From: Escherichia coli
GTDB taxonomy: Bacteria; Pseudomonadota; Gammaproteobacteria; Enterobacterales; Enterobacteriaceae
DNA length: 64,000 nucleotides
Strand: one strand, 5' to 3'
Assembly (NCBI RefSeq): GCF_044647545.1
Contig: NZ_CP172818.1
Part shown: positions 11,820 to 60,847 of the stretch, piece after piece
Layout of the letters: the number at the start of each line of letters is the position of its first letter
How positions within the stretch are numbered: the stretch's first letter is position 1
The notes under the pieces: generated by a model
The model's input: the letters and a program-made list of their open reading frames with translations, nothing else
What the model was told of the DNA's origin: nothing
Database searches by the model: none
Made by a program: the position numbers and the translations under genes

Positions 11820-11844
11820 AAAGGCCCATTCGGGCCTTTTTTAG
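11820..11844 (+). terminator. rho-independent terminator after sotB
   Basis: aaaggcccattcgggcc hairpin followed by T6. Confidence 0.6.
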
Positions 11845-12506
11845 TGGTACGTTTTAATGATTTCCAGGATGCCGTTAATAATAAACTGCACCCCCATACA
11901 TACCAGCAGGAATCCCATCAGACGGGAGATCGCTTCAATGCCACCCTTGCCCACCAGCCGCATAATCGCGCCGGAGCTGCGTAGGCTTCCCCACAAAATA
12001 ACCGCCACCAGGAAAAAGATCAGCGGCGGCGCAACCATCAGTACCCAATCAGCAAAGGTTGAACTCTGACGCACTGTGGACGCCGAGCTAATAATCATCG
12101 CTATGGTTCCCGGACCGGCGGTACTTGGCATTGCCAGTGGTACAAAAGCAATATTGGCGCTGGGTTCATCTTCCAGCTCTTCCGACTTGCTTTTCGCTTC
12201 CGGTGAATCAATCGCTTTCTGTTGCGGAAAGAGCATCCGAAAACCGATAAACGCGACGATTAAGCCGCCTGCAATTCGCAGACCGGGAATCGAAATGCCA
12301 AATGTATCCATCACCAGTTGCCCGGCGTAATACGCCACCATCATGATGGCAAAGACGTACACCGAGGCCATCAACGACTGACGATTACGTTCGGCACTGT
12401 TCATGTTGCCTGCCAGGCCAAGAAATAACGCGACAGTTGTTAATGGGTTAGCTAACGGTAGTAACACCACCAGCCCCAGGCCAATTGCTTTAAATAAATC
12501 TAACAT
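11841..12506 (-). CDS. marC: MarC-family inner membrane protein, 221 aa
   Basis: 221-aa hydrophobic ORF divergent from marRAB. Confidence 0.9.
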
Positions 12507-12599
12507 TGGTGGTTGTTATCCTGTGTATCTGGTTTATCAGCGAAAAGTATAAGGGGTAAACAACGATAAAGTGTCACTCTTTAGCTAACCTTGCATCGC

Positions 12600-12717
12600 A
12601 CTGACCAAAACTTGAACCGATTTAGCAAAACGTGGCATCGGTCAATTCATTCATTTGACTTATACTTGCCTGGGCAATATTATCCCCTGCAACTAATTAC
12701 TTGCCAGGGCAACTAAT
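12600..12717 (+). promoter_or_regulatory. marO: marRAB promoter/operator with marbox (12619-12643) and two palindromic MarR sites (about 12662-12678 and 12697-12715)
   Basis: gatttagcaaaacgtggcatcggtc marbox; TTGCC..GGCAA palindromes tacttgcctgggcaata and ttacttgccagggcaacta immediately upstream of the GTG start. Confidence 0.8.
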
Positions 12718-13152
12718 GTGAAAAGTACCAGCGATCTGTTCAATGAAATTATTCCATTGGGTCGCTTAATCCATATGGTTAATCAGAAGAAAGATCGCCT
12801 GCTTAACGAGTATCTGTCTCCGCTGGATATTACCGCGGCACAGTTTAAGGTGCTCTGCTCTATCCGCTGCGCGGAGTGTATTACTCCGGTTGAACTGAAA
12901 AAGGTATTGTCGGTCGACCTGGGGGCGCTGACCCGTATGCTGGATCGCCTGGTCTGTAAAGGCTGGGTGGAAAGGTTGCCGAACCCGAATGACAAGCGCG
13001 GCGTACTGGTAAAACTTACCACCAGCGGCGCGGCAATATGTGAACAATGCCATCAATTAGTTGGCCAGGACCTGCATCAAGAATTAACAAAAAACCTGAC
13101 GGCGGACGAAGTGGCAACACTTGAGCATTTGCTTAAGAAAGTCCTGCCGTAA
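12718..13152 (+). CDS. marR: multiple antibiotic resistance repressor MarR, 144 aa, GTG start; carries E53, S103, H137
   Basis: Recognised sequence; codons 12874-12876 gag, 13024-13026 agc, 13126-13128 cat. Confidence 0.95.
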
Positions 13153-13172
13153 ACAAAAAAAGAGGTATGACG

Positions 13173-13556
13173 ATGTCCAGACGCAATACTGACGCTATTA
13201 CCATTCATAGCATTTTGGACTGGATCGAGGACAACCTGGAATCGCCACTGTCACTGGAGAAAGTGTCAGAGCGTTCGGGTTACTCCAAATGGCACCTGCA
13301 ACGGATGTTTAAAAAAGAAACCGGTCATTCATTAGGCCAATACATCCGCAGCCGTAAGATGACGGAAATCGCGCAAAAGCTGAAGGAAAGTAACGAGCCG
13401 ATACTCTATCTGGCAGAACGATATGGCTTCGAGTCGCAACAAACTCTGACCCGAACCTTCAAAAATTACTTTGATGTTCCGCCGCATAAATACCGGATGA
13501 CCAATATGCAGGGCGAATCGCGCTTTTTACATCCATTAAATCATTACAACAGCTAG
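13173..13556 (+). CDS. marA: AraC-family activator MarA, 127 aa
   Basis: [31 protein letters not shown]...; second ATG of the ORF chosen. Confidence 0.95.
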
Positions 13557-13587
13557 TTGAAAACGTGACAACGTCACTGAGGCAATC

Positions 13588-13806
13588 ATGAAACCACTTT
13601 TATCCGCAATAGCAGCTGCGCTTATTCTCTTTTCCGCGCAGGGCGTTGCGGAACAAACCACGCAGCAGTTTGTTACTTCCTGTGCCAATGTCGTGGTTGT
13701 TCCCCCATCGCAGGAACAACCACCGTTTGATTTAAATCACATGGGTACTGGCAGTGATAAGTCGGATGCGCTCGGCGTGCCCTATTATAATCAACACGCT
13801 ATGTAG
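13588..13806 (+). CDS. marB: MarB, periplasmic small protein, 72 aa
   Basis: 72-aa ORF with signal peptide after marA. Confidence 0.9.
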   Translation: MKPLLSAIAAALILFSAQGVAEQTTQQFVTSCANVVVVPPSQEQPPFDLNHMGTGSDKSDALGVPYYNQHAM

Positions 13807-16245: not shown

Positions 16246-16341
16246 TGCTGGGTAATATGAATGTTTTTATGGCCGTACTGGGAATAATTTTATTTTCTGG
16301 GTTTCTGGCCGCGTATTTCAGCCACAAATGGGATGACTAAT
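16246..16341 (+). CDS. mgtS: small membrane protein MgtS (YneM), 31 aa
   Basis: atgctgggtaatatgaatgtt... encodes MLGNMNVFMAVLGIILFSGFLAAYFSHKWDD; terminator hairpin follows. Confidence 0.8.
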
Positions 16342-16367
16342 GAACGGAGATAATCCCTCACCTAACC

Positions 16368-16407
16368 GGCCCCTTGTTACAGTTGTGTACAAGGGGCCTG
16401 ATTTTTA
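16368..16407 (+). terminator. rho-independent terminator of mgtS
   Basis: ggccccttgt...acaaggggcc stem followed by tgattttta. Confidence 0.6.
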
Positions 16408-16415
16408 TGACGGCG

Positions 16416-16513
16416 AAAAAAAACCGCCAGTAAACCGGCGGTGAATGCTTGCATGGATAGATTTGTGTTTTGCTTTTACGCTAACAGGCATTTTCCTGCA
16501 CTGATAACGGATC
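16416..16513 (-). ncRNA. mgrR: MgrR sRNA (PhoP-dependent, Hfq-binding); coordinates approximate
   Basis: Minus-strand PhoP box, candidate -10 TACTGT about 22 bp downstream, and a terminator (ccgccggtttactggcgg + T8) about 98 nt from the predicted start. Confidence 0.6.
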
Positions 16514-16546
16514 GTTGACACAGTAGCATCAGTTTTCTCAATGAAT

Positions 16547-16564
16547 GTTAAACGGAGCTTAAAC
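16547..16564 (-). promoter_or_regulatory. PhoP box (GTTTAA-N5-GTTTAA direct repeat) upstream of mgrR
   Basis: Minus strand reads gtttaagctccgtttaac. Confidence 0.6.
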
Positions 16565-27436: not shown

Positions 27437-28011
27437 CTACGGCAGTGCTGGCCATTCAATATCCTGTGCAGTTGACGTATCAACACGGTTCAGCAATACC
27501 CGATACTTTTTCCATGCTTCCAGCAACGGGGTTTCTTCCTCCGTTGCAATTTCCAGATCTGCAGCATCCTGAAGCGGCGCAATATGCTCACTGGCTACCT
27601 GCATCAGGTTGTTTTTTTTTCTTCCGCTTCCCGTATCCGAAACAGTTTTTCTGCTTCCTCATCATTCACCCAGGATACGCCGTCCCACTTCTGATACTCC
27701 CCTGCTGGCGACAACCAGGTGACATTCTCTGGTAGCGGTCCGAGTTCAGAAATAAACAATGCGTCCCCCGACGCCACGTCATAGACCGTTTTACCACGAT
27801 GGTCTTCAACAATATTCCACGATTCATTTTCACTGTTAAAAACTGCCACAAAGCCAGCAGGAATTTCCGGTGGGGCGATATCTGTAGAATTAGCTGGCAG
27901 CCCTGTATGAGGTGGAATATATGCGTCACCTTCACCAATAAACTCATTAGTTCCGGCCAGCAGGTTATAAATTTTTACGGTACGTGATTGTTCACTCATT
28001 CTGAATGCCAT
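27437..28011 (-). pseudogene. tfaQ: tail fibre assembly protein TfaQ, frameshifted at a 9-nt homopolymer (27612-27620)
   Basis: N-terminal frame stops after ...EAEEKKTT at 27604; the C-terminal part ([22 protein letters not shown]...DIEWPALP*) continues in another frame to a stop at 27437-27439. Confidence 0.7.
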
Positions 28012-28934
28012 TATGCAAGCCTCACAATATAATTAAATGCGATGTTTTTAACGGTGTTTTCCGCGTTACCAGCAGCGTTAACGGTGATGGTGTGTCCATG
28101 TGAACCAATCTTAACAGAGTGCGTATGAGCGCCAATACCAACAGTGTGTGCATGTGCCCCAGCACTTGTAGCGGTACCTGATACTGAGTGGGTATGTGCG
28201 CCAGAAGAAGGCACAGTTCCATTCCCCACCACCGTGCCACTTGATGAACCATCCAGCCAGTCGAAATTCATACCGCCACTGTTTGGTCTCCTTAATGGAA
28301 CGGTATGAGTATGTGCGCCAGCACTATTTGCAGTACCAGATACATTGTGGGTATGTGCACCTGTGTTATTCGTTGATTTAGTACCGTAATCAAACGACGA
28401 TGTGGTTTTCGTACCCAAATCCGTACTGGATGCGCTGGCACTGTGGGTGTGCGATTTAATGCCATCCTGTTCCTGAGACAATACGGCCCGACCACTGGCG
28501 GGTTTGCCCTTGATTGTCCAGCCGCGCATATCTGGAATAACACCAGAAGGATAGGCAATAGCCAGTTTCGGATATGCTGCCTTATCAAACGTCTGCCCCT
28601 GCATGATTGCATAACCTGCAGGTGGCGTATCTGATGGCCACGGGATTGGTGCACCGACTGGATAAAACTCTGCAGGAGGATGAGCCGAGGTGTAAAGCTG
28701 CGCCCACGGCGACCAGTTTGCGTCGGTCGTATCCCGTCGTGAACGAATAAATGCCGGAGCATGAGCACCGCTTGTACCACTCCAGCCGATGAGTAACTCA
28801 CCTTCGCCAACGGCTGTCATCCCTTTCAGGTGAATGATATTTCCATACGCTGTTGGATATCCGTTGTTATACACCTCGTATAACTCAAGACCTGCTGCCC
28901 CCTGCGTATTGTCTGTCAGCGCGGTTATATTCAC
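28011..28934 (-). CDS. stfQ: side tail fibre protein fragment StfQ (YdfN); Gly/His-rich repeats
   Basis: 307-aa ORF with repeated [11 protein letters not shown]-type units; stop overlaps tfaQ start (TAATG); the 5' end overlaps nohQ so the true start is uncertain. Confidence 0.65.
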
Positions 28935-29454
28935 TCAGCAACCCCGGTATCAGTTCATCCAGCGCGGCTGCTTTGTTCATGGCTTTGATAATATCCCGTT
29001 TCAGGAAATCAACATGTCGGTTTTCCAGTTCCGGAAAACGCCGCTGCACCGACAGGGGGAGCCCGTCGAGAATACTGGCAATTTCACCTGCGATCCGCGA
29101 CAACACGAAAGTACAGAATGCGGTTTCCACCACTTCAGCGGAGTCTCTGGCATTCTTCAGTTCCTGTGCGTCGGCCTGCGCACGCGTAAGTCGATGGCGT
29201 TCGTACTCAATAGTTCCTGGCTGGAGATCTGCCTCGCTGGCCTGCCGCAGTTCTTCAACCTCCCGGCGCAGCTTTTCGTTCTCAATTTCAGCATCCCTTT
29301 CGGCATACCATTTTATGACGGCGGCAGAGTCATAAAGCACCTCATTACCCTTGCCACCGCCTCGCAGAACGGGCATTCCCTGTTCCTGCCAGTTCTGAAT
29401 GGTACGGATACTCGCACCGAAAATGTCAGCCAGCTGCTTTTTGTTGACTTCCAT
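28885..29454 (-). CDS. nohQ: terminase small-subunit (Nu1) homologue NohQ, 189 aa with altered C-terminus
   Basis: [46 protein letters not shown]... as in lambda Nu1; C-terminal residues diverge, consistent with a deletion junction. Confidence 0.85.
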
Positions 29455-29630
29455 TGTTCATTCCACGGACAAAAACAGAGAAAGGAAACGACAGAGGCCA
29501 AAAAGCTCGCTTTCAGCACCTGTCGTTTCCTTTCTTTCAGAGGGTATTTTAAATAAAAACATTAAGTTATGACGAAGAAGAACGGAAACGCCTTAAACCG
29601 GAAATTTTTCATAAATAGCGAAAACCCGCG

Positions 29631-29642
29631 AGGTCGCCGCCC
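29631..29642. other. cosN cohesive-end site, within a lambda-like cos region (about 29455-29700)
   Basis: aggtcgccgccc is the reverse complement of lambda cosN GGGCGGCGACCT; flanks match my recollection of the lambda left end (cosB) and right end (cosQ side). Confidence 0.75.
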
Positions 29643-29841
29643 CGTAACCTGTCGGATCGCCGGAAAGGACCCGCAAAATGATAATAATTATCATCTGCAT
29701 GTCACAACGTGCATCTACGCCATCAAACCACGTCAAATAATCAATTATGACGCAGGTATCATATTAATTGATCTGCATCAACTTAACGTAAAAACAACTT
29801 CAGACAATACAAATCAGCGACACTAAATACGGGACAACCTC

Positions 29842-30075
29842 ATGTCAACGAAGAACAGAACCCGCAGAACAACAATCCGCAACATCCGCTTTCCTAACCA
29901 AATGATTGAACAAATTAACATCGCTCTTGATCAAAAAGGGTCCGGGAATTTCTCAGCCTGGGTCATTGAAGCCTGCCGCCGGAGACTGTGCTCAGAAAAA
30001 AGAGTTTCTCCTGAAGCAAACAAAGAAAAGAGTGACATTACTGAATTGCTCAGAAAACAGATCAGACCAGATTGA
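29842..30075 (+). CDS. ynfO: Qin prophage protein YnfO, 77 aa
   Basis: 77-aa ORF MSTKNRTRRTTIRNIRFPNQMIEQ... Confidence 0.75.
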   Translation: MSTKNRTRRTTIRNIRFPNQMIEQINIALDQKGSGNFSAWVIEACRRRLCSEKRVSPEANKEKSDITELLRKQIRPD

Positions 30076-31308: not shown

Positions 31309-31579
31309 AATGTTACCGTAATATGTGAGTATCCATCGACTAGACACTAAGCAAAAAAGCTCCCGAAGGAGCCTTCATTTTCACTTTCTTAAATCTAACG
31401 ACAGATGGCTAACATTTAAGTATTGTGAAATATTATCAAATGTAATCATCATTGATTTACAAAAGATACATTTTGCCCCGAAAGGATTTCTGTCAGAAAC
31501 ATCAAAAGATGATGTTCTATACTGAGAACCATGGCAACACGGGCATCTAAAGTGAATATGGTTTGTAATATTTTCTACC

Positions 31580-31792
31580 TCAAAGTGCCACTACATGAAC
31601 AGCTGCAGGGCCTTTAGGTCCGTTCTCAATACCAAATTCGACTTCCTGATTCTCAGTTAACGTTTTGAAATCGTTGCTCTGAATAGCTGAGAAATGCACA
31701 AACACATCTTTGCTACCATCTTTCGGCGTGATGAAACCAAAACCTTTTTCAGGGTTAAACCATTTCACTAAACCAGTCATTTTGTTAGACAT
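31580..31792 (-). CDS. cspI: cold-shock protein CspI, 70 aa
   Basis: [38 protein letters not shown]...; long AT-rich upstream leader. Confidence 0.9.
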
Positions 31793-32156
31793 CATTATTA
31801 CCTTTTGAAGAAGTTAGCCCTTGGGCAGAATGGTCCGAAAAAAAAATATCAGAGAGAAAAACCAACAAGGAAATCTCAAGAGGTACAAATAATAAAATTA
31901 TAACAATGACTGCTTCAGATAATTTTGTAACAAACCAGAACACCATTAACGCATGATTAACCAACCATAGCAAGGATTACTTTTGTAAAGAAAAACACAC
32001 GAATGAAACAATAGCTTTATTTATTAATAAAACGTGTCATTCTGTCTAATGACCTTTTATCTTACCCTTAAGATTTCAAGGATTTTGACTCATGGAAGAG
32101 TCCTTTTTATTTAAATTTCACATTCAGCGCTAAAAATAATCCGATTTAATATTAAT

Positions 32157-34103: not shown

Positions 34104-34466
34104 TTGATTTTATTAGTAACAAGTATTTTTTATATTTTAATAATATATTTAAAGCAGATAATAAAAAACCCGCCTGAGCGGGTTTGAGATTGTGGTGCTT
34201 TTTGTGGGAGTCATCCACTTACGCACTTTGTTTTGCCATGCCAGCAGTTAGCTTCTGCTGTAAAACTATTCATGCAGCAAACCTGCACTTCACCACAATG
34301 GTTAGCATACTTTTCCTGATTAAGATTTTGCCAAATATGCTAGCCATTGTTTCATGTATTGGACCTCCTTACTTTTTATTAAAGAGATCCAATATTCACT
34401 ACTCTGTCCGTATCTCTACTCAGGCATCAGCCTTCTTCGTTATCGTATACAGACGAGCGATGAATT

Positions 34467-34682
34467 TTAATCAGTAATGATGACATTTGCTGCTGCAGGA
34501 CCTTTAGCACCACTCTCTATAGAGAAGGTAACCTTTTGACCTTCAAATAAGGTTCGATAATTATCATTCTGAATCGCAGAAAAATGCACAAACACATCTT
34601 TACTACCATCAACAGGAGAAATAAAGCCGAAACCTTTATCAGCGTTAAACCATTTTACTAAACCAGTCATTTTATTTGACAT
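34467..34682 (-). CDS. cspB: cold-shock protein CspB, 71 aa
   Basis: [38 protein letters not shown]... Confidence 0.9.
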
Positions 34683-34982
34683 TCTACATTCCTTAACTTG
34701 AGCCTTTCGGCATAAATGGTTTGCATAACAGAAACGACTTCGTACTTAATTGGAGAGACTCAAAGAAGGAATAAGTGAATAACACCTGAAATGAGAACTG
34801 CTTTAGTAAACTACTTCGTATATCGTCTGTTCTTCAAACCGACGCAATCATTAACGCATAGTTGAACATATGAAGCAATGTTTATTTTAGACATCCAGCC
34901 ATCTTCAACCCCATCAAAAAACTATAGCTTTCTTCAGGAACGTGTGTATAGTGCGCCAAGTTATCAGTATTAAGGAATTTTT

Positions 34983-42621: not shown

Positions 42622-42679
42622 TTTCTGGTGACGTTTGGCGGTATCAGTTTTACTCCGTGACTGCTCTGCCGCCCTTTTT
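42622..42679 (+). ncRNA. dicF: DicF sRNA (53 nt) plus its terminator U-tail
   Basis: tttctggtgacgtttggcggtatcagttttactccgtgactgctctgccgccc followed by ttttt. Confidence 0.8.
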
Positions 42680-44256: not shown

Positions 44257-44917
<661 letters not shown>

Positions 44918-45417: not shown

Positions 45418-46212
45418 ATGACAAATCTTAACGCCGTGTTCCAGTTTGGTGTTGATAACGGTTACCTGGCAGATAACCCGTTTAAGGGGATCTCGCCATT
45501 AAAGGAATCAAGAACCATTCCGGATCCTCTTTCGCGGGAGGAATTCATCCGTCTTATCGATGCGTGCAGAAATCAGCAAGCCAAAAATTTATGGTGTGTT
45601 TCTGTTTATACTGGCGTTCGCCCTGGTGAGCTGTGTGCACTTGGATGGGAGGACATAGATCTGAAAAATGGAACAATGATGATCAGGAGAAATTTAGCAA
45701 AAGACCGTTTCACGGTACCAAAAACACAGGCGGGAACCAATCGGGTCATTCATCTTATTAAGCCAGCAATCGACGCTCTCCGGAGTCAGATGACATTAAC
45801 GAGACTGAGCAAAGAGCATATCATTGATGTTCACCTCAGAGAGTATGGCAGAACAGAAAAACATAAATGCACCTTTGTTTTTCAACCTGAAGTGTCAGCG
45901 AGAGTAAAAAATTATGGTGACCATTTTACCGTTGACTCAATAAGGCAGATGTGGGACGCAGCGATAAAACGTGCCGGACTCCGCCATCGAAAATCATATC
46001 AGTCGAGACATACTTATGCCTGCTGGTCGCTGACAGCTGGTGCTAACCCGGCATTTATAGCAAACCAGATGGGCCATGCAGATGCGCAAATGGTATTTCA
46101 GGTATACGGAAAATGGATGTCTGAAAACAATAATGCACAGGTAGCTTTGTTAAATACACAGTTAAGCGAGTTTGCCCCAACCATGCCCCATAACGAAGCA
46201 ATGAAAAATTAA
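45418..46212 (+). pseudogene. intQ: defective prophage integrase IntQ (C-terminal catalytic domain only)
   Basis: 264-aa ORF with tyrosine-recombinase features (...HLIKPAIDALR..., ...RHTYACW...); upstream 44950-45417 has integrase-like N-terminal coding potential broken across frames. Confidence 0.8.
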
Positions 46213-47430: not shown

Positions 47431-48645
47431 TTACCAGTTCCACAGCGTGCCATCTTCCAGACGTGCGACTGGCAGATAAGCAGGTTCATAGGGATATTTC
47501 GCCGCCAGCTTTTCATCGAATTCGATGCCAAGACCCGGTTTGTCTCCCGGATGCATATAGCCGTTATCAAAAGTCCAGTTGTGCGGGAAGACTTCAAGCA
47601 TTTGTTCGGAATAACCCATGTATTCCTGGACACCGAAATTGGGGACCCACAGATCAAAGTGCAGCGCCGCAGCCATGCAGACTGGCGACAAATCGGAAGG
47701 ACCGTGTGAGCCAGTACGTACCTGATACAACGAAGCAAAATCGGCAATCCGGCGCATACCGGTAATCCCCCCCGCGTGAGTCAGCGTGGTGCGGATATAG
47801 TCGATAAGTTGTTCTTCAATCAGCTGTTTGCAGTCCCAGATGCTGTTGAAGACTTCACCCACTGCAATTGGCGTGACGGTGTGTTGGCGAATCAGGCGGA
47901 AACACTCCTGGTTTTCCGCAGGCGTCGGATCTTCCATCCAGAACATGCGATAATCTTCAATGCTTTTACCAAAGCGTGCTGCTTCAATAGGCGTTAAGCG
48001 ATGGTGCATGTCATGCAGCAAATGTTCATTAAAACCAAACTTGTTACGTACCGCGTCAAACAATTTCGGCATGAAATCGAGGTATTTCTCCGTCGACCAC
48101 AGCTGCTCTTCCGGCCACTGTCCTTTGGTTGCGGGTTCATAAGCCAGACCTTTACCTTTCGACATGCCATAGGTGGTTTTCATACCAGGGATTCCGCACT
48201 GCACGCGGATGGCTTTGAATCCCAGCTCCTGATGACGGGCATAATCATCCAGAGCTTCATCAATACTGTGACCGGTGGTATGGCAATAAACCATCACCCC
48301 TTCACGAGACGCGCCGCCGAGTAACTGGTAAAGCGGCATGTTGGCAGCTTTGGCTTTAATATCCCACAGCGCCATATCAACCGCTGAAATGGCCGACATC
48401 GTAACCGGACCGCGACGCCAGTAAGCACCTTTATAGAAAAACTGCCAGATATCTTCGATACGGTGCGCATCGCGACCAATAAGCTGCGGACAAAGGTGAT
48501 CCTGCAAATAAGAGGCCACGGAAAGCTCACGTCCATTGAGGGTGGCATCCCCAAGGCCCGTAATACCGTCCTCAGTGGTGATTTTTAATGTGACGAAATT
48601 ACGCCCCGGACAGGTAACAAAAACTTCAGCCTTTACGATCTTCAT
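47431..48645 (-). CDS. rspA: enolase-superfamily mannonate dehydratase-like protein RspA, 404 aa
   Basis: Start at [40 protein letters not shown]... Confidence 0.9.
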
Positions 48646-49687: not shown

Positions 49688-50248
49688 ATGCCAAGCGCCC
49701 ACAGTGTTAAGCTACGCCCGCTGGAGCGTGAAGATTTACGCTATGTACATCAACTCGACAATAACGCCAGTGTGATGCGTTACTGGTTTGAGGAACCCTA
49801 CGAAGCCTTTGTTGAACTCTCTGATCTGTACGATAAGCATATTCACGATCAGAGCGAACGGCGCTTTGTGGTGGAATGTGACGGCGAAAAAGCCGGTCTG
49901 GTGGAGCTGGTGGAAATTAACCATGTTCATCGCCGCGCAGAATTTCAGATAATTATCTCCCCGGAATATCAGGGGAAAGGTCTGGCAACGCGTGCCGCAA
50001 AATTAGCAATGGACTATGGCTTCACCGTTCTCAATCTCTATAAGCTGTATCTGATCGTCGATAAAGAGAATGAAAAAGCGATTCACATTTACCGCAAGCT
50101 TGGCTTTACGGTTGAAGGTGAATTGATGCATGAGTTCTTTATTAATGGTCAATATCGGAATGCCATTCGCATGTGCATATTCCAGCATCAGTATCTGGCA
50201 GAGCACAAAACACCGGGTCAGACTCTCCTGAAGCCGACCGCACAATAG
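49688..50248 (+). CDS. speG: spermidine N1-acetyltransferase SpeG, 186 aa
   Basis: GNAT fold motifs; recognised. Confidence 0.95.
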
Positions 50249-50250
50249 CA

Positions 50251-50961
50251 TTAATAATAATCGATAGTATTTTTGATGGTGTAAACCCGTTCGACGGCGG
50301 GTTTTACTCCTTCATCAACAATGATTAGCTGACAGTCTACCGGATTGGCGTGACTGTCATATTCACAGCTCTGTTTTACATTACCAACCCGTTGATTATT
50401 CAGTAAAGTAACCGCTGTGTAATCTAATTTTTTGATCGGATCCGTTGATGGCGTAGCGCTAACAGATAATGTTTTGTCGTTACTTTTCGTGGTTTTACCC
50501 AGCGGATAACCCTGATCATCATAGCGATATTCCATCTGCATCTGTTTGCTGCTGGCTTTAATCACAAAGCCATTATCATCGGTTTCCCAACTCACCCCGG
50601 CAGAAGGTAATTCTGCTAGCTGGCATTTTCCCTGCAAACGAACTCTTTTCTCCAGTGTCTGGGCATCACGGTAATAATTGGCGTCCAGTACCAGGGCAAC
50701 CACGGTATTATTTTCCAGATCCAGTAATTCGAGAGAATCAAAACAGCCTTCTTCCGACAAAGTCCCCGAAACACGTTTCGTCACTTCACCTTGCTCATCC
50801 ATTAATGTCTGAGTGAAATCTTTTACGGGACCACGCAGCGGATCAAAATCGAATTCATTAGAGAAACTGGCCATCTCCGGGGTAAATGAAAGTGTTACTT
50901 CTGTGCGGTCACATCCTGTGAGGAATATCGCGAGTAAGCATGGCAGTAATTTGTATTTCAC
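50251..50961 (-). CDS. ynfC: UPF0257 lipoprotein YnfC, 236 aa (GTG start inferred)
   Basis: Lipobox LTGC in KYKLLPCLLAIFLTGCDR. Confidence 0.8.
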   Translation of the reverse strand: MKYKLLPCLLAIFLTGCDRTEVTLSFTPEMASFSNEFDFDPLRGPVKDFTQTLMDEQGEVTKRVSGTLSEEGCFDSLELLDLENNTVVALVLDANYYRDAQTLEKRVRLQGKCQLAELPSAGVSWETDDNGFVIKASSKQMQMEYRYDDQGYPLGKTTKSNDKTLSVSATPSTDPIKKLDYTAVTLLNNQRVGNVKQSCEYDSHANPVDCQLIIVDEGVKPAVERVYTIKNTIDYY

Positions 50962-51068
50962 AACAGTCACCTGAGAGTAGAGATGATTCTCAATCATAGT
51001 AGCAAATACAGTACTTTACACGTTAAATGCTATGCTTAAAGAAGTTATCTTCGCGTAAGGAGCTTATG

Positions 51069-51374
51069 ATGAAACTCTCAACCTGCTGTGCCGCGCTTCT
51101 GCTCGCCCTCGCCTCACCCGCGGTACTCGCCGCGCCGGGATCCTGCGAGCGCATACAGAGCGATATATCACAGCGCATTATCAATAATGGCGTACCCGAA
51201 AGCAGCTTCACGTTAAGTATTGTACCCAATGACCAGGTTGATCAGCCTGATTCCCAGGTCGTCGGGCATTGCGCTAATGATACGCATAAAATTCTCTACA
51301 CCCGTACCACCAGCGGTAACGTCTCTGCTCCCGCGCAGTCTACCCAGGATGGCGCGCCTGCCGAACCGCAGTAA
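51069..51374 (+). CDS. ynfD: YnfD, secreted small protein, 101 aa
   Basis: Signal peptide MKLSTCCAALLLALASPAVLA. Confidence 0.8.
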   Translation: MKLSTCCAALLLALASPAVLAAPGSCERIQSDISQRIINNGVPESSFTLSIVPNDQVDQPDSQVVGHCANDTHKILYTRTTSGNVSAPAQSTQDGAPAEPQ

Positions 51375-51459
51375 CACATTATCGACTGAACGCCGGATAC
51401 GACACATCCGGCGATTTGAACATACAACATAATCCCACCTTATTACTCATACCCTTCTA

Positions 51460-51473
51460 TTGATATGGATTAA
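51460..51473 (+). promoter_or_regulatory. candidate FNR-type site (TTGAT-N4-ATTAA) upstream of ynfE
   Basis: ttgatatggattaa about 100 bp upstream of the ynfE start; one mismatch to TTGAT-N4-ATCAA. Confidence 0.35.
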
Positions 51474-51572
51474 TAATTCTTAACCCAAAATAGGTAGACT
51501 CCCTCTATTGTTAGCGCGCTAAATATTCAATATATAAACTTTTATATAACGATAAAGAACAGGGAGTGAGTT

Positions 51573-53999
51573 ATGTCCAAAAATGAACAAATGGTGGGCA
51601 TCAGCCGCAGAACACTCGTTAAATCTACCGCGATAGGTTCTCTGGCGCTGGCTGCAGGTGGTTTTTCTTTACCGTTCACCCTGCGCAGTGCAGCGGCAGC
51701 GGTACAACAGGCCAGCGAGAAAGTGGTCTGGGGTGCCTGTTCCGTCAACTGTGGTAGCCGCTGTGCACTTCGTCTGCATGTTAAAGATAATGAAGTGACC
51801 TGGGTGGAAACTGACAACACCGGCAACGACGAGTATGGCAATCATCAAGTACGTGCCTGTTTGCGCGGTCGCTCCATCCGTCGGCGTATTAATCATCCCG
51901 ATCGCTTGAATTACCCAATGAAACGCGTGGGCAAACGCGGCGAAGGCAAATTCGAACGGATTAGCTGGGATGAAGCCCTGGATACTATCGCCAGTAGCCT
52001 GAAAAAAACCGTCGAACAATATGGCAATGAGGCTGTATATATTCAGTACTCTTCAGGGATCGTTGGCGGCAATATGACCCGCTCTTCACCATCAGCCTCG
52101 GCGGTCAAACGCCTGATGAACTGCTACGGCGGTTCACTCAATCAGTATGGCTCCTACAGCACCGCGCAAATTTCCTGTGCCATGCCCTACACCTACGGCA
52201 GTAATGATGGCAACAGCACCACGGATATTGAAAACAGCAAGCTGGTCGTGATGTTTGGTAACAACCCGGCAGAAACCCGCATGAGCGGCGGTGGCATCAC
52301 TTATCTTCTTGAAAAAGCGCGCGAGAAATCGAACGCAAAAATGATTGTTATCGATCCGCGATATACCGATACGGCTGCTGGTCGTGAAGACGAATGGCTA
52401 CCTATTCGCCCGGGCACCGATGCCGCGCTGGTTGCGGGTATTGCCTGGGTATTGATTAACGAAAATCTCGTTGATCAACCTTTTCTCGATAAATACTGCG
52501 TCGGCTATGACGAAAAAACCTTACCCGCAGATGCACCAATAAATGGTCACTATAAAGCCTATATTCTTGGTGAAGGTGATGATAAAACAGCGAAAACGCC
52601 GCAGTGGGCTTCGCAAATTACCGGTATCCCGGTGGACCGTATCATCAAGCTGGCGCGTGAAATTGGCACAGCAAAACCCGCTTATATCTGCCAGGGCTGG
52701 GGGCCGCAACGCCAGGCAAACGGTGAGCTGACCGCACGCGCTATTGCTATGTTGCCTATTTTGACGGGCAATGTCGGCATCAGCGGCGGAAATAGTGGCG
52801 CGCGTGAATCGACCTATACCATTACCATAGAACGCCTGCCGGTGCTGGATAATCCGGTCAAAACGTCAATCTCCTGCTTCAGCTGGACGGATGCTATCGA
52901 TCATGGCCCGCAAATGACGGCAATCCGCGACGGCGTCCGGGGCAAAGATAAACTGGATGTGCCCATTAAGTTCATCTGGAACTACGCGGGAAATACCCTG
53001 GTTAATCAGCATTCTGACATCAACAAAACGCATGAAATTCTGCAGGACGAATCGAAATGCGAAATGATTGTGGTCATCGAAAACTTTATGACCTCATCGG
53101 CAAAATATGCCGACATTCTGCTGCCAGACCTGATGACCGTTGAGCAGGAAGATATTATTCCTAACGATTACGCCGGTAACATGGGATATCTCATTTTCCT
53201 TCAGCCAGTCACCAGCGAAAAATTCGAACGCAAACCGATTTACTGGATCCTGAGTGAGGTCGCGAAACGTCTTGGACCTGACGTCTATCAAAAGTTCACT
53301 GAAGGTCGCACTCAGGAACAATGGTTACAACATCTGTACGCCAAAATGCTTGCCAAAGATCCGGCGTTACCGTCTTACGACGAACTGAAAAAAATGGGTA
53401 TCTATAAGCGTAAAGATCCCAATGGTCATTTTGTCGCCTACAAAGCATTTCGTGACGACCCCGAGGCAAATCCACTTAAAACGCCTTCCGGTAAGATCGA
53501 AATTTACTCCAGCAAGCTGGCGGAAATTGCCCGTACCTGGGAACTGGAAAAAGATGAAGTGATAAGCCCACTGCCGGTTTATGCCTCAACCTTTGAAGGC
53601 TGGGACTCCCCTGAACGTAGTACCTTTCCACTGCAACTGTTTGGTTTCCATTACAAATCCCGTACTCACTCGACCTACGGCAATATTGATGTCCTGAAGG
53701 CAGCCTGCCGTCAGGAAGTGTGGATCAACCCTATAGATGCACAGAAACGTGGGATTGCCAACGGCGATATGGTGCGGGTGTTTAACCATCGTGGCGAAGT
53801 TCGGCTACCAGCCAAAGTGACACCACGCATTCTCCCTGGGGTTAGCGCTATGGGCCAGGGAGCCTGGCACGAGGCCAATATGTCTGGCGATAAAATCGAC
53901 CATGGCGGCTGTGTGAATACGCTAACCACTCTGCGCCCCTCACCACTGGCGAAGGGAAACCCGCAGCACACTAATCTGGTCGAGATCGAAAAAATATAA
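51573..53999 (+). CDS. ynfE: Tat-exported molybdopterin oxidoreductase YnfE (DmsA paralogue; selenate reductase catalytic subunit), 808 aa
   Basis: Twin-arginine signal ISRRTLVK, N-terminal Cys cluster C-x2-C-x3-C, DmsA-like throughout. Confidence 0.95.
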   Translation: MSKNEQMVGISRRTLVKSTAIGSLALAAGGFSLPFTLRSAAAAVQQASEKVVWGACSVNCGSRCALRLHVKDNEVTWVETDNTGNDEYGNHQVRACLRGRSIRRRINHPDRLNYPMKRVGKRGEGKFERISWDEALDTIASSLKKTVEQYGNEAVYIQYSSGIVGGNMTRSSPSASAVKRLMNCYGGSLNQYGSYSTAQISCAMPYTYGSNDGNSTTDIENSKLVVMFGNNPAETRMSGGGITYLLEKAREKSNAKMIVIDPRYTDTAAGREDEWLPIRPGTDAALVAGIAWVLINENLVDQPFLDKYCVGYDEKTLPADAPINGHYKAYILGEGDDKTAKTPQWASQITGIPVDRIIKLAREIGTAKPAYICQGWGPQRQANGELTARAIAMLPILTGNVGISGGNSGARESTYTITIERLPVLDNPVKTSISCFSWTDAIDHGPQMTAIRDGVRGKDKLDVPIKFIWNYAGNTLVNQHSDINKTHEILQDESKCEMIVVIENFMTSSAKYADILLPDLMTVEQEDIIPNDYAGNMGYLIFLQPVTSEKFERKPIYWILSEVAKRLGPDVYQKFTEGRTQEQWLQHLYAKMLAKDPALPSYDELKKMGIYKRKDPNGHFVAYKAFRDDPEANPLKTPSGKIEIYSSKLAEIARTWELEKDEVISPLPVYASTFEGWDSPERSTFPLQLFGFHYKSRTHSTYGNIDVLKAACRQEVWINPIDAQKRGIANGDMVRVFNHRGEVRLPAKVTPRILPGVSAMGQGAWHEANMSGDKIDHGGCVNTLTTLRPSPLAKGNPQHTNLVEIEKI

Positions 54000-54056
54000 C
54001 CCTCTACAACCATAAATTCTGGCATGACATTTTGTTTGAAAAGCAATAAGTGAGTA

Positions 54057-56483
54057 ATGATGAAAATCCATACCACAGAGGCGCTCATGAAGGCTGAAAT
54101 CAGCCGTAGAAGTCTGATGAAAACCTCCGCACTTGGCAGTCTTGCGCTGGCAAGCAGTGCTTTCACTCTGCCATTTTCCCAAATGGTCCGAGCGGCAGAG
54201 ACACCGGTAGAAGAGAAAGCGGTCTGGAGTTCCTGCACCGTTAACTGCGGGAGCCGCTGTCTGTTACGTTTGCATGTGAAAGATGACACCGTGTACTGGG
54301 TGGAGTCTGATACGACAGGAGACGACGTTTACGGTAATCATCAGGTTCGGGCATGTTTACGCGGGCGCTCTATCCGCCGACGGATGAATCATCCTGACAG
54401 GTTGAAATATCCCATGAAGCGCGTCGGCAAGCGCGGTGAAGGTAAATTTGAACGGATAAGTTGGGATGAAGCCCTGGATACCATCAGTGATAATCTTCGG
54501 CGGATCCTTAAAGATTACGGCAATGAGGCTGTACATGTCCTGTACGGAACAGGCGTAGATGGCGGAAACATCACCAACTCGAACGTCCCGTACCGTCTGA
54601 TGAACTCATGCGGTGGTTTTCTCAGTCGCTATGGTAGCTACAGTACCGCACAGATCAGTGCCGCGATGAGTTATATGTTCGGTGCCAATGATGGCAACAG
54701 CCCGGATGATATCGCCAATACGAAACTGGTCGTTATGTTCGGAAATAACCCGGCAGAAACCCGGATGAGCGGCGGTGGTGTCACTTACTACGTCGAGCAA
54801 GCCCGCGAACGTTCAAATGCACGCATGATCGTCATCGATCCACGTTATAACGACACTGCTGCCGGGCGTGAAGATGAATGGCTGCCCATTCGCCCTGGCA
54901 CCGATGGCGCACTGGCCTGTGCGATTGCCTGGGTACTGATTACTGAAAACATGGTCGATCAGCCATTTCTCGACAAATATTGTGTTGGTTACGATGAAAA
55001 AACGCTGCCCGCCAACGCACCTCGTAACGCGCATTATAAAGCCTATATTCTGGGCGAAGGGCCTGACGGCATAGCTAAAACGCCGGAATGGGCAGCAAAA
55101 ATCACCAGCATCCCGGCAGAAAAAATTATCCAGTTGGCACGAGAGATCGGTTCAGCAAAACCGGCTTATATTTGTCAGGGTTGGGGGCCACAACGACATT
55201 CCAACGGCGAGCAAACATCCCGCGCTATTGCCATGCTTTCCGTTCTCACCGGTAACGTCGGCATAAACGGCGGCAACTCAGGTGTACGCGAAGGTAGCTG
55301 GGATCTGGGAGTAGAATGGTTCCCGATGCTCGAGAATCCTGTTAAAACGCAGATTTCCGTCTTTACATGGACAGATGCCATCGACCATGGTACGGAAATG
55401 ACCGCGACCCGTGATGGTGTTCGTGGAAAAGAAAAACTGGATGTCCCCATCAAGTTTTTATGGTGCTACGCCAGTAACACATTGATCAATCAACATGGCG
55501 ACATCAATCACACCCATGAGGTGCTTCAGGATGACAGCAAGTGCGAGATGATTGTTGGCATTGACCACTTCATGACTGCCTCGGCTAAGTATTGCGATAT
55601 CCTGTTGCCCGACCTGATGCCAACAGAGCAAGAAGACCTTATCTCTCATGAATCTGCAGGGAATATGGGATATGTGATCCTCGCCCAACCCGCAACCTCA
55701 GCAAAATTTGAACGCAAACCCATCTACTGGATTCTGAGTGAAGTCGCCAAACGCTTAGGACCAGACGTTTATCAAACCTTTACTGAAGGTCGCAGTCAGC
55801 ATGAATGGATCAAATATCTCCATGCGAAAACGAAGGAACGTAACCCTGAGATGCCCGACTACGAGGAGATGAAAACGACCGGGATCTTTAAGAAAAAATG
55901 CCCGGAAGAACACTACGTCGCTTTCCGCGCATTCCGTGAAGATCCACAGGCAAACCCGTTGAAAACACCTTCGGGGAAAATCGAAATTTATTCTGAACGA
56001 CTGGCGACGATTGCGGATACCTGGGAATTGAAAAAAGATGAAATTATTCATCCCCTTCCTGCATATACCCCAGGTTTTGATGGCTGGGACGATCCCCTGC
56101 GGAAAACCTATCCACTGCAGTTAACGGGCTTCCACTACAAAGCGCGTACCCACTCCAGCTACGGCAATATTGATGTGTTACAGCAGGCCTGCCCACAAGA
56201 GGTGTGGATCAACCCTATTGATGCTCAGGCACGCGGTATCCGTCATGGCGATACCGTGCGGGTATTTAACACTAATGGAGAAATGCTGATTGCCGCAAAA
56301 GTGACTCCGCGTATTCTGCCTGGCGTTACCGCCATCGGGCAAGGTGCGTGGCTTAAAGCGGATATGTTTGGTGACCGGGTCGATCACGGCGGCAGTATCA
56401 ATATTCTGACCTCTCACCGCCCTTCACCGCTGGCAAAGGGAAACCCGTCGCACAGCAATCTCGTCCAGATCGAAAAGGTTTAA
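54057..56483 (+). CDS. ynfF: Tat-exported molybdopterin oxidoreductase YnfF (DmsA paralogue), 808-aa ORF
   Basis: Twin-arginine signal ISRRSLMK; close tandem paralogue of ynfE. Confidence 0.95.
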   Translation: MMKIHTTEALMKAEISRRSLMKTSALGSLALASSAFTLPFSQMVRAAETPVEEKAVWSSCTVNCGSRCLLRLHVKDDTVYWVESDTTGDDVYGNHQVRACLRGRSIRRRMNHPDRLKYPMKRVGKRGEGKFERISWDEALDTISDNLRRILKDYGNEAVHVLYGTGVDGGNITNSNVPYRLMNSCGGFLSRYGSYSTAQISAAMSYMFGANDGNSPDDIANTKLVVMFGNNPAETRMSGGGVTYYVEQARERSNARMIVIDPRYNDTAAGREDEWLPIRPGTDGALACAIAWVLITENMVDQPFLDKYCVGYDEKTLPANAPRNAHYKAYILGEGPDGIAKTPEWAAKITSIPAEKIIQLAREIGSAKPAYICQGWGPQRHSNGEQTSRAIAMLSVLTGNVGINGGNSGVREGSWDLGVEWFPMLENPVKTQISVFTWTDAIDHGTEMTATRDGVRGKEKLDVPIKFLWCYASNTLINQHGDINHTHEVLQDDSKCEMIVGIDHFMTASAKYCDILLPDLMPTEQEDLISHESAGNMGYVILAQPATSAKFERKPIYWILSEVAKRLGPDVYQTFTEGRSQHEWIKYLHAKTKERNPEMPDYEEMKTTGIFKKKCPEEHYVAFRAFREDPQANPLKTPSGKIEIYSERLATIADTWELKKDEIIHPLPAYTPGFDGWDDPLRKTYPLQLTGFHYKARTHSSYGNIDVLQQACPQEVWINPIDAQARGIRHGDTVRVFNTNGEMLIAAKVTPRILPGVTAIGQGAWLKADMFGDRVDHGGSINILTSHRPSPLAKGNPSHSNLVQIEKV

Positions 56484-56493
56484 GGAGTAGCCC

Positions 56494-57111
56494 ATGACCA
56501 CACAATATGGATTTTTTATCGATTCCAGCCGCTGTACTGGCTGTAAAACCTGCGAACTGGCGTGCAAAGATTTTAAAGATCTTGGCCCGGAAGTCAGTTT
56601 CCGCCGTATTTATGAATATGCTGGCGGCGACTGGCAGGAAGATAATGGCGTCTGGCACCAGAACGTGTTCGCTTATTATCTCTCCATCTCCTGTAACCAT
56701 TGCGATGACCCCGCATGTACAAAAGTCTGCCCCAGCGGCGCAATGCATAAGCGTGAAGATGGCTTTGTGGTGGTTGATGAAGATGTTTGTATCGGCTGCC
56801 GCTACTGCCACATGGCTTGTCCGTACGGCGCACCACAGTACAATGCTGAAAAAGGGCACATGACGAAGTGCGATGGTTGTTATTCGCGCGTCGCCGAGGG
56901 GAAACAACCCATATGTGTCGAATCCTGCCCGCTGCGTGCACTTGAATTCGGTCCAATTGAAGAGCTGCGCCAGAAGCACGGCACTCTGGCTGCCGTTGCG
57001 CCACTGCCGCGCGCGCATTTCACAAAACCCAATATCGTTATCAAACCTAACGCCAACAGCCGCCCGACCGGCGATACCACTGGTTATCTGGCTAATCCGG
57101 AGGAAGTGTAA
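56494..57111 (+). CDS. ynfG: 4Fe-4S ferredoxin-type subunit YnfG (DmsB paralogue), 205 aa
   Basis: Four Cys clusters (CTGCKTCELAC, CNHCDDPACTKVC, CIGCRYCHMAC, CDGC...). Confidence 0.95.
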   Translation: MTTQYGFFIDSSRCTGCKTCELACKDFKDLGPEVSFRRIYEYAGGDWQEDNGVWHQNVFAYYLSISCNHCDDPACTKVCPSGAMHKREDGFVVVDEDVCIGCRYCHMACPYGAPQYNAEKGHMTKCDGCYSRVAEGKQPICVESCPLRALEFGPIEELRQKHGTLAAVAPLPRAHFTKPNIVIKPNANSRPTGDTTGYLANPEEV

Positions 57112-57112
57112 A

Positions 57113-57967
57113 ATGGGAAATGGATGGCATGAATGGCCACTGGTTATCTTTACCGTATTGGGTCAATGCGTAGTAGGCGCGCTGATTGTTAGCGGAATTG
57201 GCTGGTTCGCCGCCAAAAATGACGCAGACCGTCAGCGTATTGTCCGTGGCATGTTTTTCCTCTGGCTGTTGATGGGCATCGGGTTTATTGCCTCTGTCAT
57301 GCACCTGGGGTCGCCACTGCGGGCGTTTAACTCGCTGAATCGAATCGGAGATTCTGGTCTGAGTAACGAGATTGCTGCCGGTTCCATATTTTTTGCCGTT
57401 GGCGGATTATGGTGGCTGGTGGCAGTCATCGGTAAAATGCCGCAAGCGTTGGGGAAACTCTGGTTACTTGTCAGCATGGCGCTCGGCGTCATTTTCGTCT
57501 GGATGATGACCTGCGTGTATCAAATCGACACAGTGCCAACCTGGCATAACGGTTACACTACGCTGGCTTTCTTCCTGACAGTATTGTTGAGCGGTCCAAT
57601 ACTTGCTGCCGCAATTCTGCGAGCAGCCCGCGTTACATTTAATACCACACCATTTGCCATCATTAGCGTTCTGGCGCTGATCGCTTGTGCCGGGGTGATT
57701 GTGCTGCAAGGTTTGTCTCTGGCGTCTATTCACTCATCCGTACAACAAGCCAGCGCACTGGTACCAGATTACGCCTCCTTACAGGTCTGGCGTGTGGTAT
57801 TGTTATGCGCAGGTCTAGGATGCTGGCTTTGTCCGCTCATTCGTCGCCGTGAACCTCACGTTGCCGGACTTGTTCTGGGGCTAATCCTCATACTTGGCGG
57901 TGAGATGATCGGGCGTGTGCTCTTTTATGGCCTGCACATGACGGTAGGAATGGCTATTGCAGGTTAA
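57113..57967 (+). CDS. ynfH: membrane anchor subunit YnfH (DmsC paralogue), 284 aa
   Basis: MGNGWHEWPLVIFTVLGQ..., about 8 TM segments. Confidence 0.9.
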   Translation: MGNGWHEWPLVIFTVLGQCVVGALIVSGIGWFAAKNDADRQRIVRGMFFLWLLMGIGFIASVMHLGSPLRAFNSLNRIGDSGLSNEIAAGSIFFAVGGLWWLVAVIGKMPQALGKLWLLVSMALGVIFVWMMTCVYQIDTVPTWHNGYTTLAFFLTVLLSGPILAAAILRAARVTFNTTPFAIISVLALIACAGVIVLQGLSLASIHSSVQQASALVPDYASLQVWRVVLLCAGLGCWLCPLIRRREPHVAGLVLGLILILGGEMIGRVLFYGLHMTVGMAIAG

Positions 57968-58009
57968 CAAATTGGTGCGGGGCAACCCGCACATTTCAGG
58001 ATGTTAGGA

Positions 58010-58624
58010 ATGACCCATTTTTCACAGCAAGATAATTTTTCTGTCGCGGCGCGCGTGTTGGGCGCGCTGTTTTATTACGCTCCAGAGAGTGCGGAAGCCG
58101 CACCTCTGGTTGCGGTACTCACCAATGACAGCTGGGAAACTCAGTGGCCTCTACCAGAAGCGTCATTAGCGCCGCTGGTGACTGCTTTTCAGACACAGAG
58201 TGAAGAGACTCACGCCCAGGCCTGGCAGCGTTTGTTTGTCGGCCCGTGGGCACTGCCGTCACCGCCGTGGGGATCGGTCTGGCTGGATCGCGAATCTGTG
58301 CTGTTTGGCGATTCAACATTGGCACTTCGTCAGTGGATGCGCGAGAAAGGCATTCAGTTTGAAATGCAGCAAAACGAACCGGAAGATCATTTTGGTTCAC
58401 TGCTGTTGATGGCTGCGTGGTTGGCGGAGAATGGTCGCCAGACAGAATGCGAAGAATTGCTGGCATGGCACCTTTTTCCGTGGTCAACACGTTTTCTTGA
58501 CGTTTTTATCGAAAAAGCAGAACACCCTTTCTACCGTGCACTGGGTGAACTCGCTCGCTTAACGCTGGCGCAATGGCAATCACAACTGTTGATTCCTGTC
58601 GCGGTTAAACCGCTGTTTCGATAG
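58010..58624 (+). CDS. dmsD: Tat proofreading chaperone DmsD, 204 aa
   Basis: MTHFSQQDNFSVAARVLGALFYYAPESAEAAPLVA... Confidence 0.95.
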   Translation: MTHFSQQDNFSVAARVLGALFYYAPESAEAAPLVAVLTNDSWETQWPLPEASLAPLVTAFQTQSEETHAQAWQRLFVGPWALPSPPWGSVWLDRESVLFGDSTLALRQWMREKGIQFEMQQNEPEDHFGSLLLMAAWLAENGRQTECEELLAWHLFPWSTRFLDVFIEKAEHPFYRALGELARLTLAQWQSQLLIPVAVKPLFR

Positions 58625-58818
58625 GATCACCGTAATATTGCCGGATGGTGACGATTACGCGCGATTCGGCAATAATACGTTACAGTGTCACGTTTTTTTA
58701 TCTCTTAAAGCACGCACTGCTTTTGCGGCTGGCCTCTTTTGCCGCAAAATAGTCGCCCGTGTTTCATTGCCCATTTCTGCTCATGCATCATCTACACATC
58801 TATCCGGATCTGCGCACT

Positions 58819-60075
58819 ATGTTCCGCCGTCTGCTTATCGCAACAGTCGTCGGTATTCTCGCGGCCTTTGCCGTTGCCGGGTTTCGTCATGCAATGCTGC
58901 TACTGGAGTGGTTGTTCCTCAATAATGACTCCGGCAGTCTGGTCAATGCAGCGACAAATCTTTCCCCATGGCGACGGCTGCTAACTCCGGCGCTCGGCGG
59001 ACTGGCGGCGGGTTTGTTGCTGATGGGCTGGCAGAAATTTACCCAGCAACGCCCTCATGCGCCGACCGATTACATGGAAGCGTTGCAAACCGATGGTCAG
59101 TTCGATTACGCAGCAAGCCTGGTTAAATCGCTTGCCTCTCTGCTGGTAGTAACCAGCGGCAGTGCAATTGGTCGCGAAGGTGCGATGATTCTTTTAGCTG
59201 CCCTTGCCGCCTCCTGTTTTGCCCAACGTTTTACGCCACGCCAGGAGTGGAAATTATGGATCGCCTGTGGAGCTGCGGCGGGAATGGCTGCGGCCTATCG
59301 CGCCCCGCTTGCTGGCAGTTTATTTATAGCCGAAGTGCTGTTTGGCACTATGATGTTGGCCTCTCTCGGCCCGGTGATTATTTCCGCCGTCGTGGCGTTG
59401 CTGGTTAGCAATCTGATTAATCATAGCGACGCGTTACTCTACAGCGTACAACTCTCAGTGACGGTTCAGGCTCGTGACTATGCGCTGATTATCAGTACAG
59501 GTGTGCTGGCAGGTCTGTGCGGACCACTGTTGTTAACGTTAATGAACGCCTGTCATCGTGGATTTGTAAGTCTCAAACTTGCGCCGCCCTGGCAACTGGC
59601 ACTGGGCGGGTTGATCGTGGGTCTGCTTTCCCTGTTCACACCTGCAGTGTGGGGCAACGGCTATAGCACCGTACAATCCTTTTTAACCGCCCCGCCACTG
59701 TTAATGATCATTGCCGGGATCTTCCTCTGTAAACTGTTTGCCGTGCTGGCGAGTAGTGGTTCTGGCGCGCCCGGTGGTGTCTTTACACCGACGCTATTTA
59801 TCGGTCTTGCCATTGGCATGTTGTATGGTCGTAGCCTGGGATTATGGTTCCCTGATGGCGAAGAAATTACGCTTTTACTCGGATTGACCGGGATGGCGAC
59901 ACTGTTGGCGGCAACCACGCACGCGCCGATTATGTCGACGTTGATGATATGTGAAATGACCGGGGAGTATCAGCTACTCCCCGGTTTATTGATTGCCTGC
60001 GTAATTGCGTCGGTAATTTCGCGGACGTTACACCGTGACTCTATCTACCGCCAGCACACTGCGAAGCATAGCTAA
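58819..60075 (+). CDS. clcB: voltage-gated ClC-type chloride channel ClcB, 418 aa
   Basis: ClC selectivity motifs GSAIGREGA and GVFTPT; start at [11 protein letters not shown]... Confidence 0.9.
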
Positions 60076-60723: not shown

Positions 60724-60847
60724 CACTAACTCCACCGTTATGCTTCACAAATATAAACCAGGAAAATAATTAACCTTGAAAGTCTAAGTTATGCTTTCCT
60801 GGCCCAAATTGAGATAGCGCAAATTTTGGTAGAACAGTTAAAAAATG

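Follow-up and report, generated by a model that had tools for sequence, protein, structure and literature searches.

A near-perfectly preserved, putatively cuttable lambda-type cos site in a Qin-type prophage remnant of Escherichia coli

Can a lambda-type cos site that has been left in a cryptic prophage, beside a gene for a terminase small subunit (TerS) and with neither a large subunit (TerL) gene nor head genes, still be used by an incoming phage, and would its use move host DNA between cells? The question was raised by a first-pass annotation of a stretch of 64 000 nucleotides from Escherichia coli (contig NZ_CP172818.1, assembly GCF_044647545.1; this whole stretch is called the window), in which the site had been placed at 29455–29700 and helper-phage-dependent packaging or transduction of the region had been suggested. 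On the evidence assembled here the site is very probably the authentic cos of a grounded Qin prophage, a fossil that could still be cut, with dead-end particles or hybrid phages as the outcome, and not a mobilisation device. Coordinates of the features are given in table 1.

Table 1. Features of the cos region and of the prophage element, in window coordinates.
Feature	Position	Strand	Remarks
Whole lambda-homologous block	28926–30004	minus	lambda 48141–48502 plus 1–719
cosQ, GGGTCCT	29666–29672	minus	equals lambda 48473–48479; at the lambda distance from cosN with no indel between; required for packaging termination
cosN, GGGCGGCGACCT	29631–29642	minus	equals lambda 1–12, exact; unique in the window
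cosN plus 2 flanking bp on each side (16 bp), CGGGGCGGCGACCTCG	29629–29644	minus	identical to lambda
I2, bent spacer from cosN to cosB	29593–29625	minus	lambda 18–50; one change, T38A
R3, AGGCGTTTCCGTTCTT	29578–29593	minus	critical TerS binding site; lambda 50–65, identical including contact bp 55–63
I1 region (IHF site and intrinsic bend), R3 to R2	about 29536–29577	minus	equals lambda 66–105 up to the A run
A3 run (TTT on the plus strand)	29535–29537	minus	A4 at lambda 106–109; lies between I1 and R2
R2, inverted	29520–29535	minus	lambda 109–124; reverse complement CTGTCGTTTCCTTTCT, the same as R1 and as R2 of lambda
R1, CTGTCGTTTCCTTTCT	29479–29494	minus	accessory TerS site; lambda 151–166, identical
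nohQ (nohA)	28885–29454	minus	shortened and fused TerS gene, 189 codons; Pfam Phage_Nu1, E = 2.8e-100
Deletion junction, end of lambda homology (bp 719) to tail fibre (stf)	28925/28926	minus	same base for base in the window, K-12 Qin and BS-01
DicF	42623–42674		Rfam, gathering level
Integrase ORF	45418–46212		264 aa, N-terminally truncated; catalytic domain by Pfam

The cosN 12-mer was found as a single copy in the window and in none of 100 dinucleotide-preserving shuffles of the window. For the lambda alignment that the first-pass annotation had called for, the right end of the lambda genome (NC_001416) was joined to the left end and aligned locally with the reverse-complemented window. The alignment comprised 1081 columns with 26 differences and ran through the joined termini (lambda 48141–48502 plus 1–719), so that the flanks do match both lambda ends, as the first-pass annotation had it. 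The match in the cos region is one of homology and not of chance. The interval first proposed was found to cover all cos subsites, from cosQ through R1, and the distance of about 190 bp that had been put between cosN and nohQ was close to the value measured, with the first cosN base 188 bp before the ATG at 29454. An RNA-element reading of cos was dropped, as no RNA family was matched there in Rfam, and small plus-strand ORFs lying over cos (e.g. 29569–29826) were taken as spurious, being unannotated in BS-01 and in K-12.

Subsites were defined according to the Feiss papers (PMC4669245, PMC4856287), with R3 taken from PMC9026076, and each element was read from the window. All lie on the minus strand in the order known from lambda, cosQ-cosN-I2-R3-I1-R2-R1. 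Together with this order, the window and lambda cos (NC_001416 48473–48502 plus 1–166) have in common cosQ, cosN, the critical part of I2, R3, I1, R2, R1 and the spacing between cosN and R3, and no indel was present across lambda bp 1–105. R3, I1, R2 and R1 were each identical to lambda, and the I1–R2 distance was 1 bp short of that at every other site examined. In I2 the critical bp 30–35 (TATGAA) were unchanged, and T38A turns A4T4 into A5T3; only bp 30–35 of I2 are critical, and bp 36–41 can be exchanged with no major change in lambda yield (PMC4856287). R3 is more sensitive than R2 or R1 to transition of a conserved base pair (PMC9026076), and R1 is an accessory site (PMC4669245).

Substitutions at positions of cosN or cosB that are essential for terminase binding and nicking had been named beforehand as the observation that would speak against a retained site. 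None was seen: cosN, cosQ, R3 bp 55–63, I2 bp 30–35 and the 16-bp R2 and R1 sequences were all unchanged. At the level of sequence, the site was shown to keep every element known to be required for recognition, nicking and termination by a lambda-specificity terminase, and it should still be recognised and cut by such enzymes. It is a real lambda-type cos of a cryptic prophage, in a near-perfect state of preservation.

Between cosQ and the nohQ ATG, five differences from lambda were counted, namely A48471G, T48486C, T38A, one A fewer at lambda 106–109 (1 bp fewer between I1 and R2) and the lack of G138 (1 bp fewer between R2 and R1). These were compared with 70 other lambda-type cos sites, drawn from IMG/VR contigs (71 by exact cosB pattern, part of them usable), two isolated phages, K-12 Qin and BS-01. 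The two changes nearest to cosQ are majority alleles, 48471G being present at 56/70 and 48486C at 64/70 of the other sites. The 38A allele, which falls in the replaceable bp 36–41, was present at 13/70, phage Chlobot among them. G138 was missing from 70/70, which makes the lambda reference the outlier, and loss of this base as a sign of decay was rejected on the same count; the window equivalent of lambda bp 138 is about 29506/29507. The offset from cosN to the nu1 ATG is usually 189 bp, with 190 bp in lambda and 188 bp in the window. The 108-bp core from cosQ to R3 was identical to that of the window at eight loci with complete nu1 plus A after cos, and over the 252-bp cos region only 2 differences from the window were counted in Chlobot and 3 in PhiR11_1, both of them plaque-forming phages. 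Most of the differences between the window and lambda are common natural alleles, present also in prophages with complete terminase genes.

The shortened A run is a private change of this copy and not a known natural allele. It is called private because no IMG/VR contig carried the A3 variant, whereas the A4 control pattern was present in 71; it was also not found in BS-01, K-12 Qin, PhiR11_1 or Chlobot, nor at any of the 70 other lambda-type cos sites, and an 85-bp A3 query was matched exactly at 0/3737 places in 2743 complete E. coli genomes, the matches there all reading A4. The change could be a real mutation or an assembly error. It leaves the R2 sequence itself intact and shortens the I1–R2 and R3–R2 distances by 1 bp; the phasing between R3 and R2 over the IHF bend would thereby be shifted, and cos efficiency may be somewhat lowered. 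In the papers on cos spacing that were consulted, a change of one bp in the I1–R2 stretch is not reported. Among complete genomes, BS-01 has the nearest relative of this Qin copy; 1-bp indels against the window were numerous in it, and many of its genes are annotated as frameshifted (pinQ, ydfK, ynfN and others). These indels suggest errors in that assembly, and BS-01 is therefore a poor reference for single-base indels.

In a rival reading the site is dead: terminase would no longer assemble on it, on account of this deletion or of the place of cos in the chromosome, and cos would have persisted only for want of time to decay. The change from A4 to A3 is unique among all sites examined, inactivating changes are present in nearby genes of this copy (e.g. 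the frameshifted tfaQ), and cos spacing can matter: the spacing between cosN and cosB is critical (PMC4856287, PMC9026076) and a 3-bp deletion there is severe (PMC9026076). The A3 run, however, lies outside cosN, I2, R3 and the 16-bp R2 and leaves the cosN–R3 spacing unaltered, and R2 and R1 are less critical than R3 (PMC9026076, PMC4669245). N15, with R3 only, packages its DNA, and the N15 terminase also packages lambda DNA (PMC4669245, PMC9026076). Loss of function through the A3 run or its surroundings is judged improbable, and the site can probably still be cut.

The gene beside cos conforms to the earlier description of a cryptic-prophage site next to a TerS gene and without TerL or head genes. 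NohQ was assigned to Phage_Nu1, and tblastn searches of the window with gpA and gpW for large terminase and head genes gave no match. Residues 1–176 of NohQ, including the recognition helix (residues 17–24) and the wing (residues 31–39), were 100% identical to lambda gpNu1, and the final five residues of the latter (IEQSG) were swapped for 13 unrelated ones; compared with lambda, the window lacks the last 5 codons of nu1 and genes A, W, B and onward. At the point where intact phages run on into gene A, the lambda homology in the window gives way to a side tail fibre remnant with collar domain and fibre repeats. All that lay between the end of nu1 and the gene for the side tail fibre would have been lost in an internal deletion, with cos and the first 176 nu1 codons left in place. 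When metagenome contigs were scanned for the nu1/stf junction, only two short contigs were recovered, neither extending to cos.

The open nohQ frame could be taken to mean that cos and NohQ are kept under selection as a decoy or poison, by which lambda-specificity phages that superinfect would have their terminase titrated or disabled. Over the 176 codons there were 0 nonsynonymous changes relative to lambda in the window and 2 in K-12, and Qin copies that have diverged still show this junction. Abortive initiations at a prophage cos reduce phage progeny (PMC4669245), and the Rpp protein of phage-inducible chromosomal islands (PICIs) shows that TerS-binding proteins can redirect packaging (PMC9026076). 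The substitutions are nevertheless too few to demonstrate selection, and recent recombination with circulating phages fits equally well, there being 0 nu1 differences between the window and Chlobot. Retention as a selected decoy is considered extremely unlikely.

The element that carries cos is a Qin-type grounded lambdoid prophage. It measures about 20 kb and lies between ydfJ' and rspB, in synteny with the annotated Qin of BS-01 and of K-12. The Qin markers dicBF, relBE, hokD, the csp genes (cspI) and the Q-lysis genes were placed through BS-01/K-12 synteny, and Pfam matches in the element comprised a Q antiterminator, DUF968 and a DicA-like HTH repressor. In BS-01 the homologue of the truncated integrase is listed as a pseudogene that lacks the N-terminus, and the annotations of the homologous Qin elements of BS-01 and K-12 contain no replication genes. 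An IS-type transposase fragment (rve_3/rve integrase core, 44369–44917) adjoins the integrase ORF, and the segment from 42.4 to 44.1 kb is only 87% identical to BS-01, with many indels. Further Rfam matches at gathering level were the STnc560 sRNA (16334–16547) and two cspA-type thermoregulator leaders (31534–31951 and 34451–34843, upstream of cspI and cspB). The tfaQ gene (window 27437–28011, minus strand) carries a frameshift near 27604–27617 that splits it into ORFs of 135 and 55 aa, the 55-aa ORF keeping the conserved C-terminus, and an Rfam IS009 match (27471–27668) overlaps this frameshift; K-12 TfaQ is a single 191-aa protein.

The window and K-12 Qin share the locus (ydfJ ... rspB), the gene order, the nu1/stf junction, DicF, relBE, hokD and the csp genes, and the cos–nohQ segment was about 97% identical between them. 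They differ at 11 positions of the 252-bp cos region and at 8 of nu1, and the window, as opposed to K-12, has the frameshifted tfaQ, the A3 run and an ST648-type flank. A non-E. coli source, considered for the 97% identity to BS-01 in the flanking genes, was rejected because the flank at 50000–62000 (ynfE–mlc region) is 100% identical to that of ST648-lineage E. coli strains. In FDAARGOS_497, a strain of this lineage, a full-length lambdoid prophage is present at the same rspB-side attachment locus (NZ_CP033850.1, 4095000–4138000); it has intact int/xis and Qin-like lysis and csp genes, and its packaging module differs, with a DUF1441 protein, a large terminase subunit, a portal and a protease–capsid fusion. 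Different Qin relatives have, on this showing, occupied the locus. Across 5426 complete E. coli genomes, the Qin-type cos-nohQ-stf arrangement was counted in about 420, thousands had nu1 and a large terminase gene behind a lambda-type cos, and most carried some lambda-type cos. The cos and nohQ of Qin are an already known, long-annotated relic, and the only new detail is the private 1-bp deletion in the I1–R2 spacer.

Use of the site would begin with a lambda-specificity phage growing in the cell, whether it had entered by superinfection or had been released by induction of a resident prophage. The TerS of this phage, with IHF, would bind R3 and R2, and its TerL would nick cosN and stay on the cosB side. 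Translocation would then proceed in the cosB direction, to lower window coordinates, through nohQ, stfQ', tfaQ', pinQ, ydfJ' and ydfI, thus leaving the prophage, and on into mar. The marRAB/marC genes were mapped through BS-01 to about 11840–13800 of the window, about 16–18 kb from cosN, and the mar locus would fall inside any headful begun at the Qin cos. A second cosN with up to 1 mismatch was found nowhere else in the window, which covers 29.6 kb downstream, and in syntenic BS-01 no second cos was found over about 54 kb of downstream sequence. Termination requires a downstream cosQ/cosN (PMC4669245, PMC9026076), and because a headful begun at the Qin cos takes in no other cos of like orientation, packaging from it is not expected to terminate. 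The result would be either a full-head, tailless, non-infectious particle or, after recombination of phage DNA with the cut end or with the 1.1-kb homologous block, a hybrid phage.

This course agrees with what has been published for prophage cos sites in general. When a phage infects a cell whose prophage has a cos of its own specificity, it initiates there, and the head fills with prophage and adjacent bacterial DNA until the motor stalls; the product is a tailless, non-infectious particle, or a recombinant phage after crossover, and the abortive initiations lower the progeny yield (PMC4669245, section 18). In crosses of lambda with the K-12 prophage DLP12, cos stimulates recombination and junctions cluster at cos (PMC3945230). 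Consistent with this course, too, is a case in O157, where the terminase of a neighbouring prophage packages a defective one whose nu1 is disrupted but whose cos is whole (PMC2669165). Like the window, DLP12 is a grounded lambdoid prophage with a cos beside a Nu1 homologue (nohD); the homology that it retains comes to 3.3 kb, with R, Rz and a part of the terminase region, and that of the Qin type to no more than 1.1 kb around cos. Sternberg and Weisberg reportedly described single-cos 'doc' particles in 1975, and the lambda-qin hybrids that defined Qin, in the studies of Kaiser (1980) and Espion et al. (1983), are said to have taken the Qin late region and cos via homology.

The packaging range of lambda is about 37–51 kb, above the size of the element, which at about 20 kb would be too small as a monomer. 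This is one of several points against satellite-like mobilisation, in which a helper lambdoid phage would package and transduce Qin or the adjacent chromosome in infectious particles. Such a reading draws on a cos that is intact by sequence and on the likely availability of helpers, since genes for lambda-type terminase abound in E. coli (many genomes have nohD plus TerL); terminases of other prophages can package defective O157 prophages (PMC2669165), and PICIs use lambda-like cosQ/cosN (PMC9026076). Against it stand the lack of a downstream cosQ/cosN over the distances given above, the N-terminally truncated integrase beside an IS fragment, with a pseudogene as its BS-01 homologue, the lack of annotated replication genes in the BS-01 and K-12 elements, the lack of any Rpp-type function in the element, and the tailless, non-infectious particles that Feiss et al. 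expect (PMC4669245). We regard mobilisation of this kind as very unlikely. The original suggestion of helper-dependent packaging or transduction holds only in part: initiation at a prophage cos is the published expectation, but productive transduction is unlikely from the Qin cos, with no second cos, a truncated integrase and an element below the packaging range.

Two known kinds of packaged element were compared with the window directly. Cos-type PICIs (EcCICFT073 and relatives) resemble it in having lambda-like cosQ/cosN by a small TerS-related gene in an element without capsid genes, but they have no lambda R sites, encode an Rpp that retargets the helper TerS, and excise and replicate (PMC9026076). 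In the window, cosB consists of the R3, R2 and R1 of lambda itself, the protein is Nu1 and the integrase a truncated one, and Rpp is lacking. By its sequence the element would be classed neither as a cos-type PICI, for which a functional integrase and Rpp are expected, nor as a cosmid-like cos-to-cos unit. Sp4 of O157 Sakai is, like the element studied here, a lambdoid prophage that is defective and in which nu1 is broken while cos is intact. The cos of Sp4 is the same as in another prophage resident in that strain, and the terminase of the latter packages Sp4 (PMC2669165). Sp4, however, is near full length and excises, whereas Qin is a 20-kb remnant that does not. A further proposal, that the orphan cos and open nohQ are kept against superinfecting phages or exploit them, be it as a decoy or TerS poison or as a one-directional, lateral-transduction-like start towards ydfJ-mar-lsr that occasionally gives infectious particles, is held to be very unlikely.

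The window is thereby shown to hold a Qin cryptic prophage, an expected relic and not a new mobility system. Where a grounded prophage has an intact cos, a lambda-like phage that enters will cut the chromosome of its host at that point, and encounters must be frequent, because about 420 of the 5426 E. coli genomes are Qin-type and most have some lambda-type cos. In such cuts heads would be wasted, or recombination with the relic would follow, which is a recognised route to mosaic phages.
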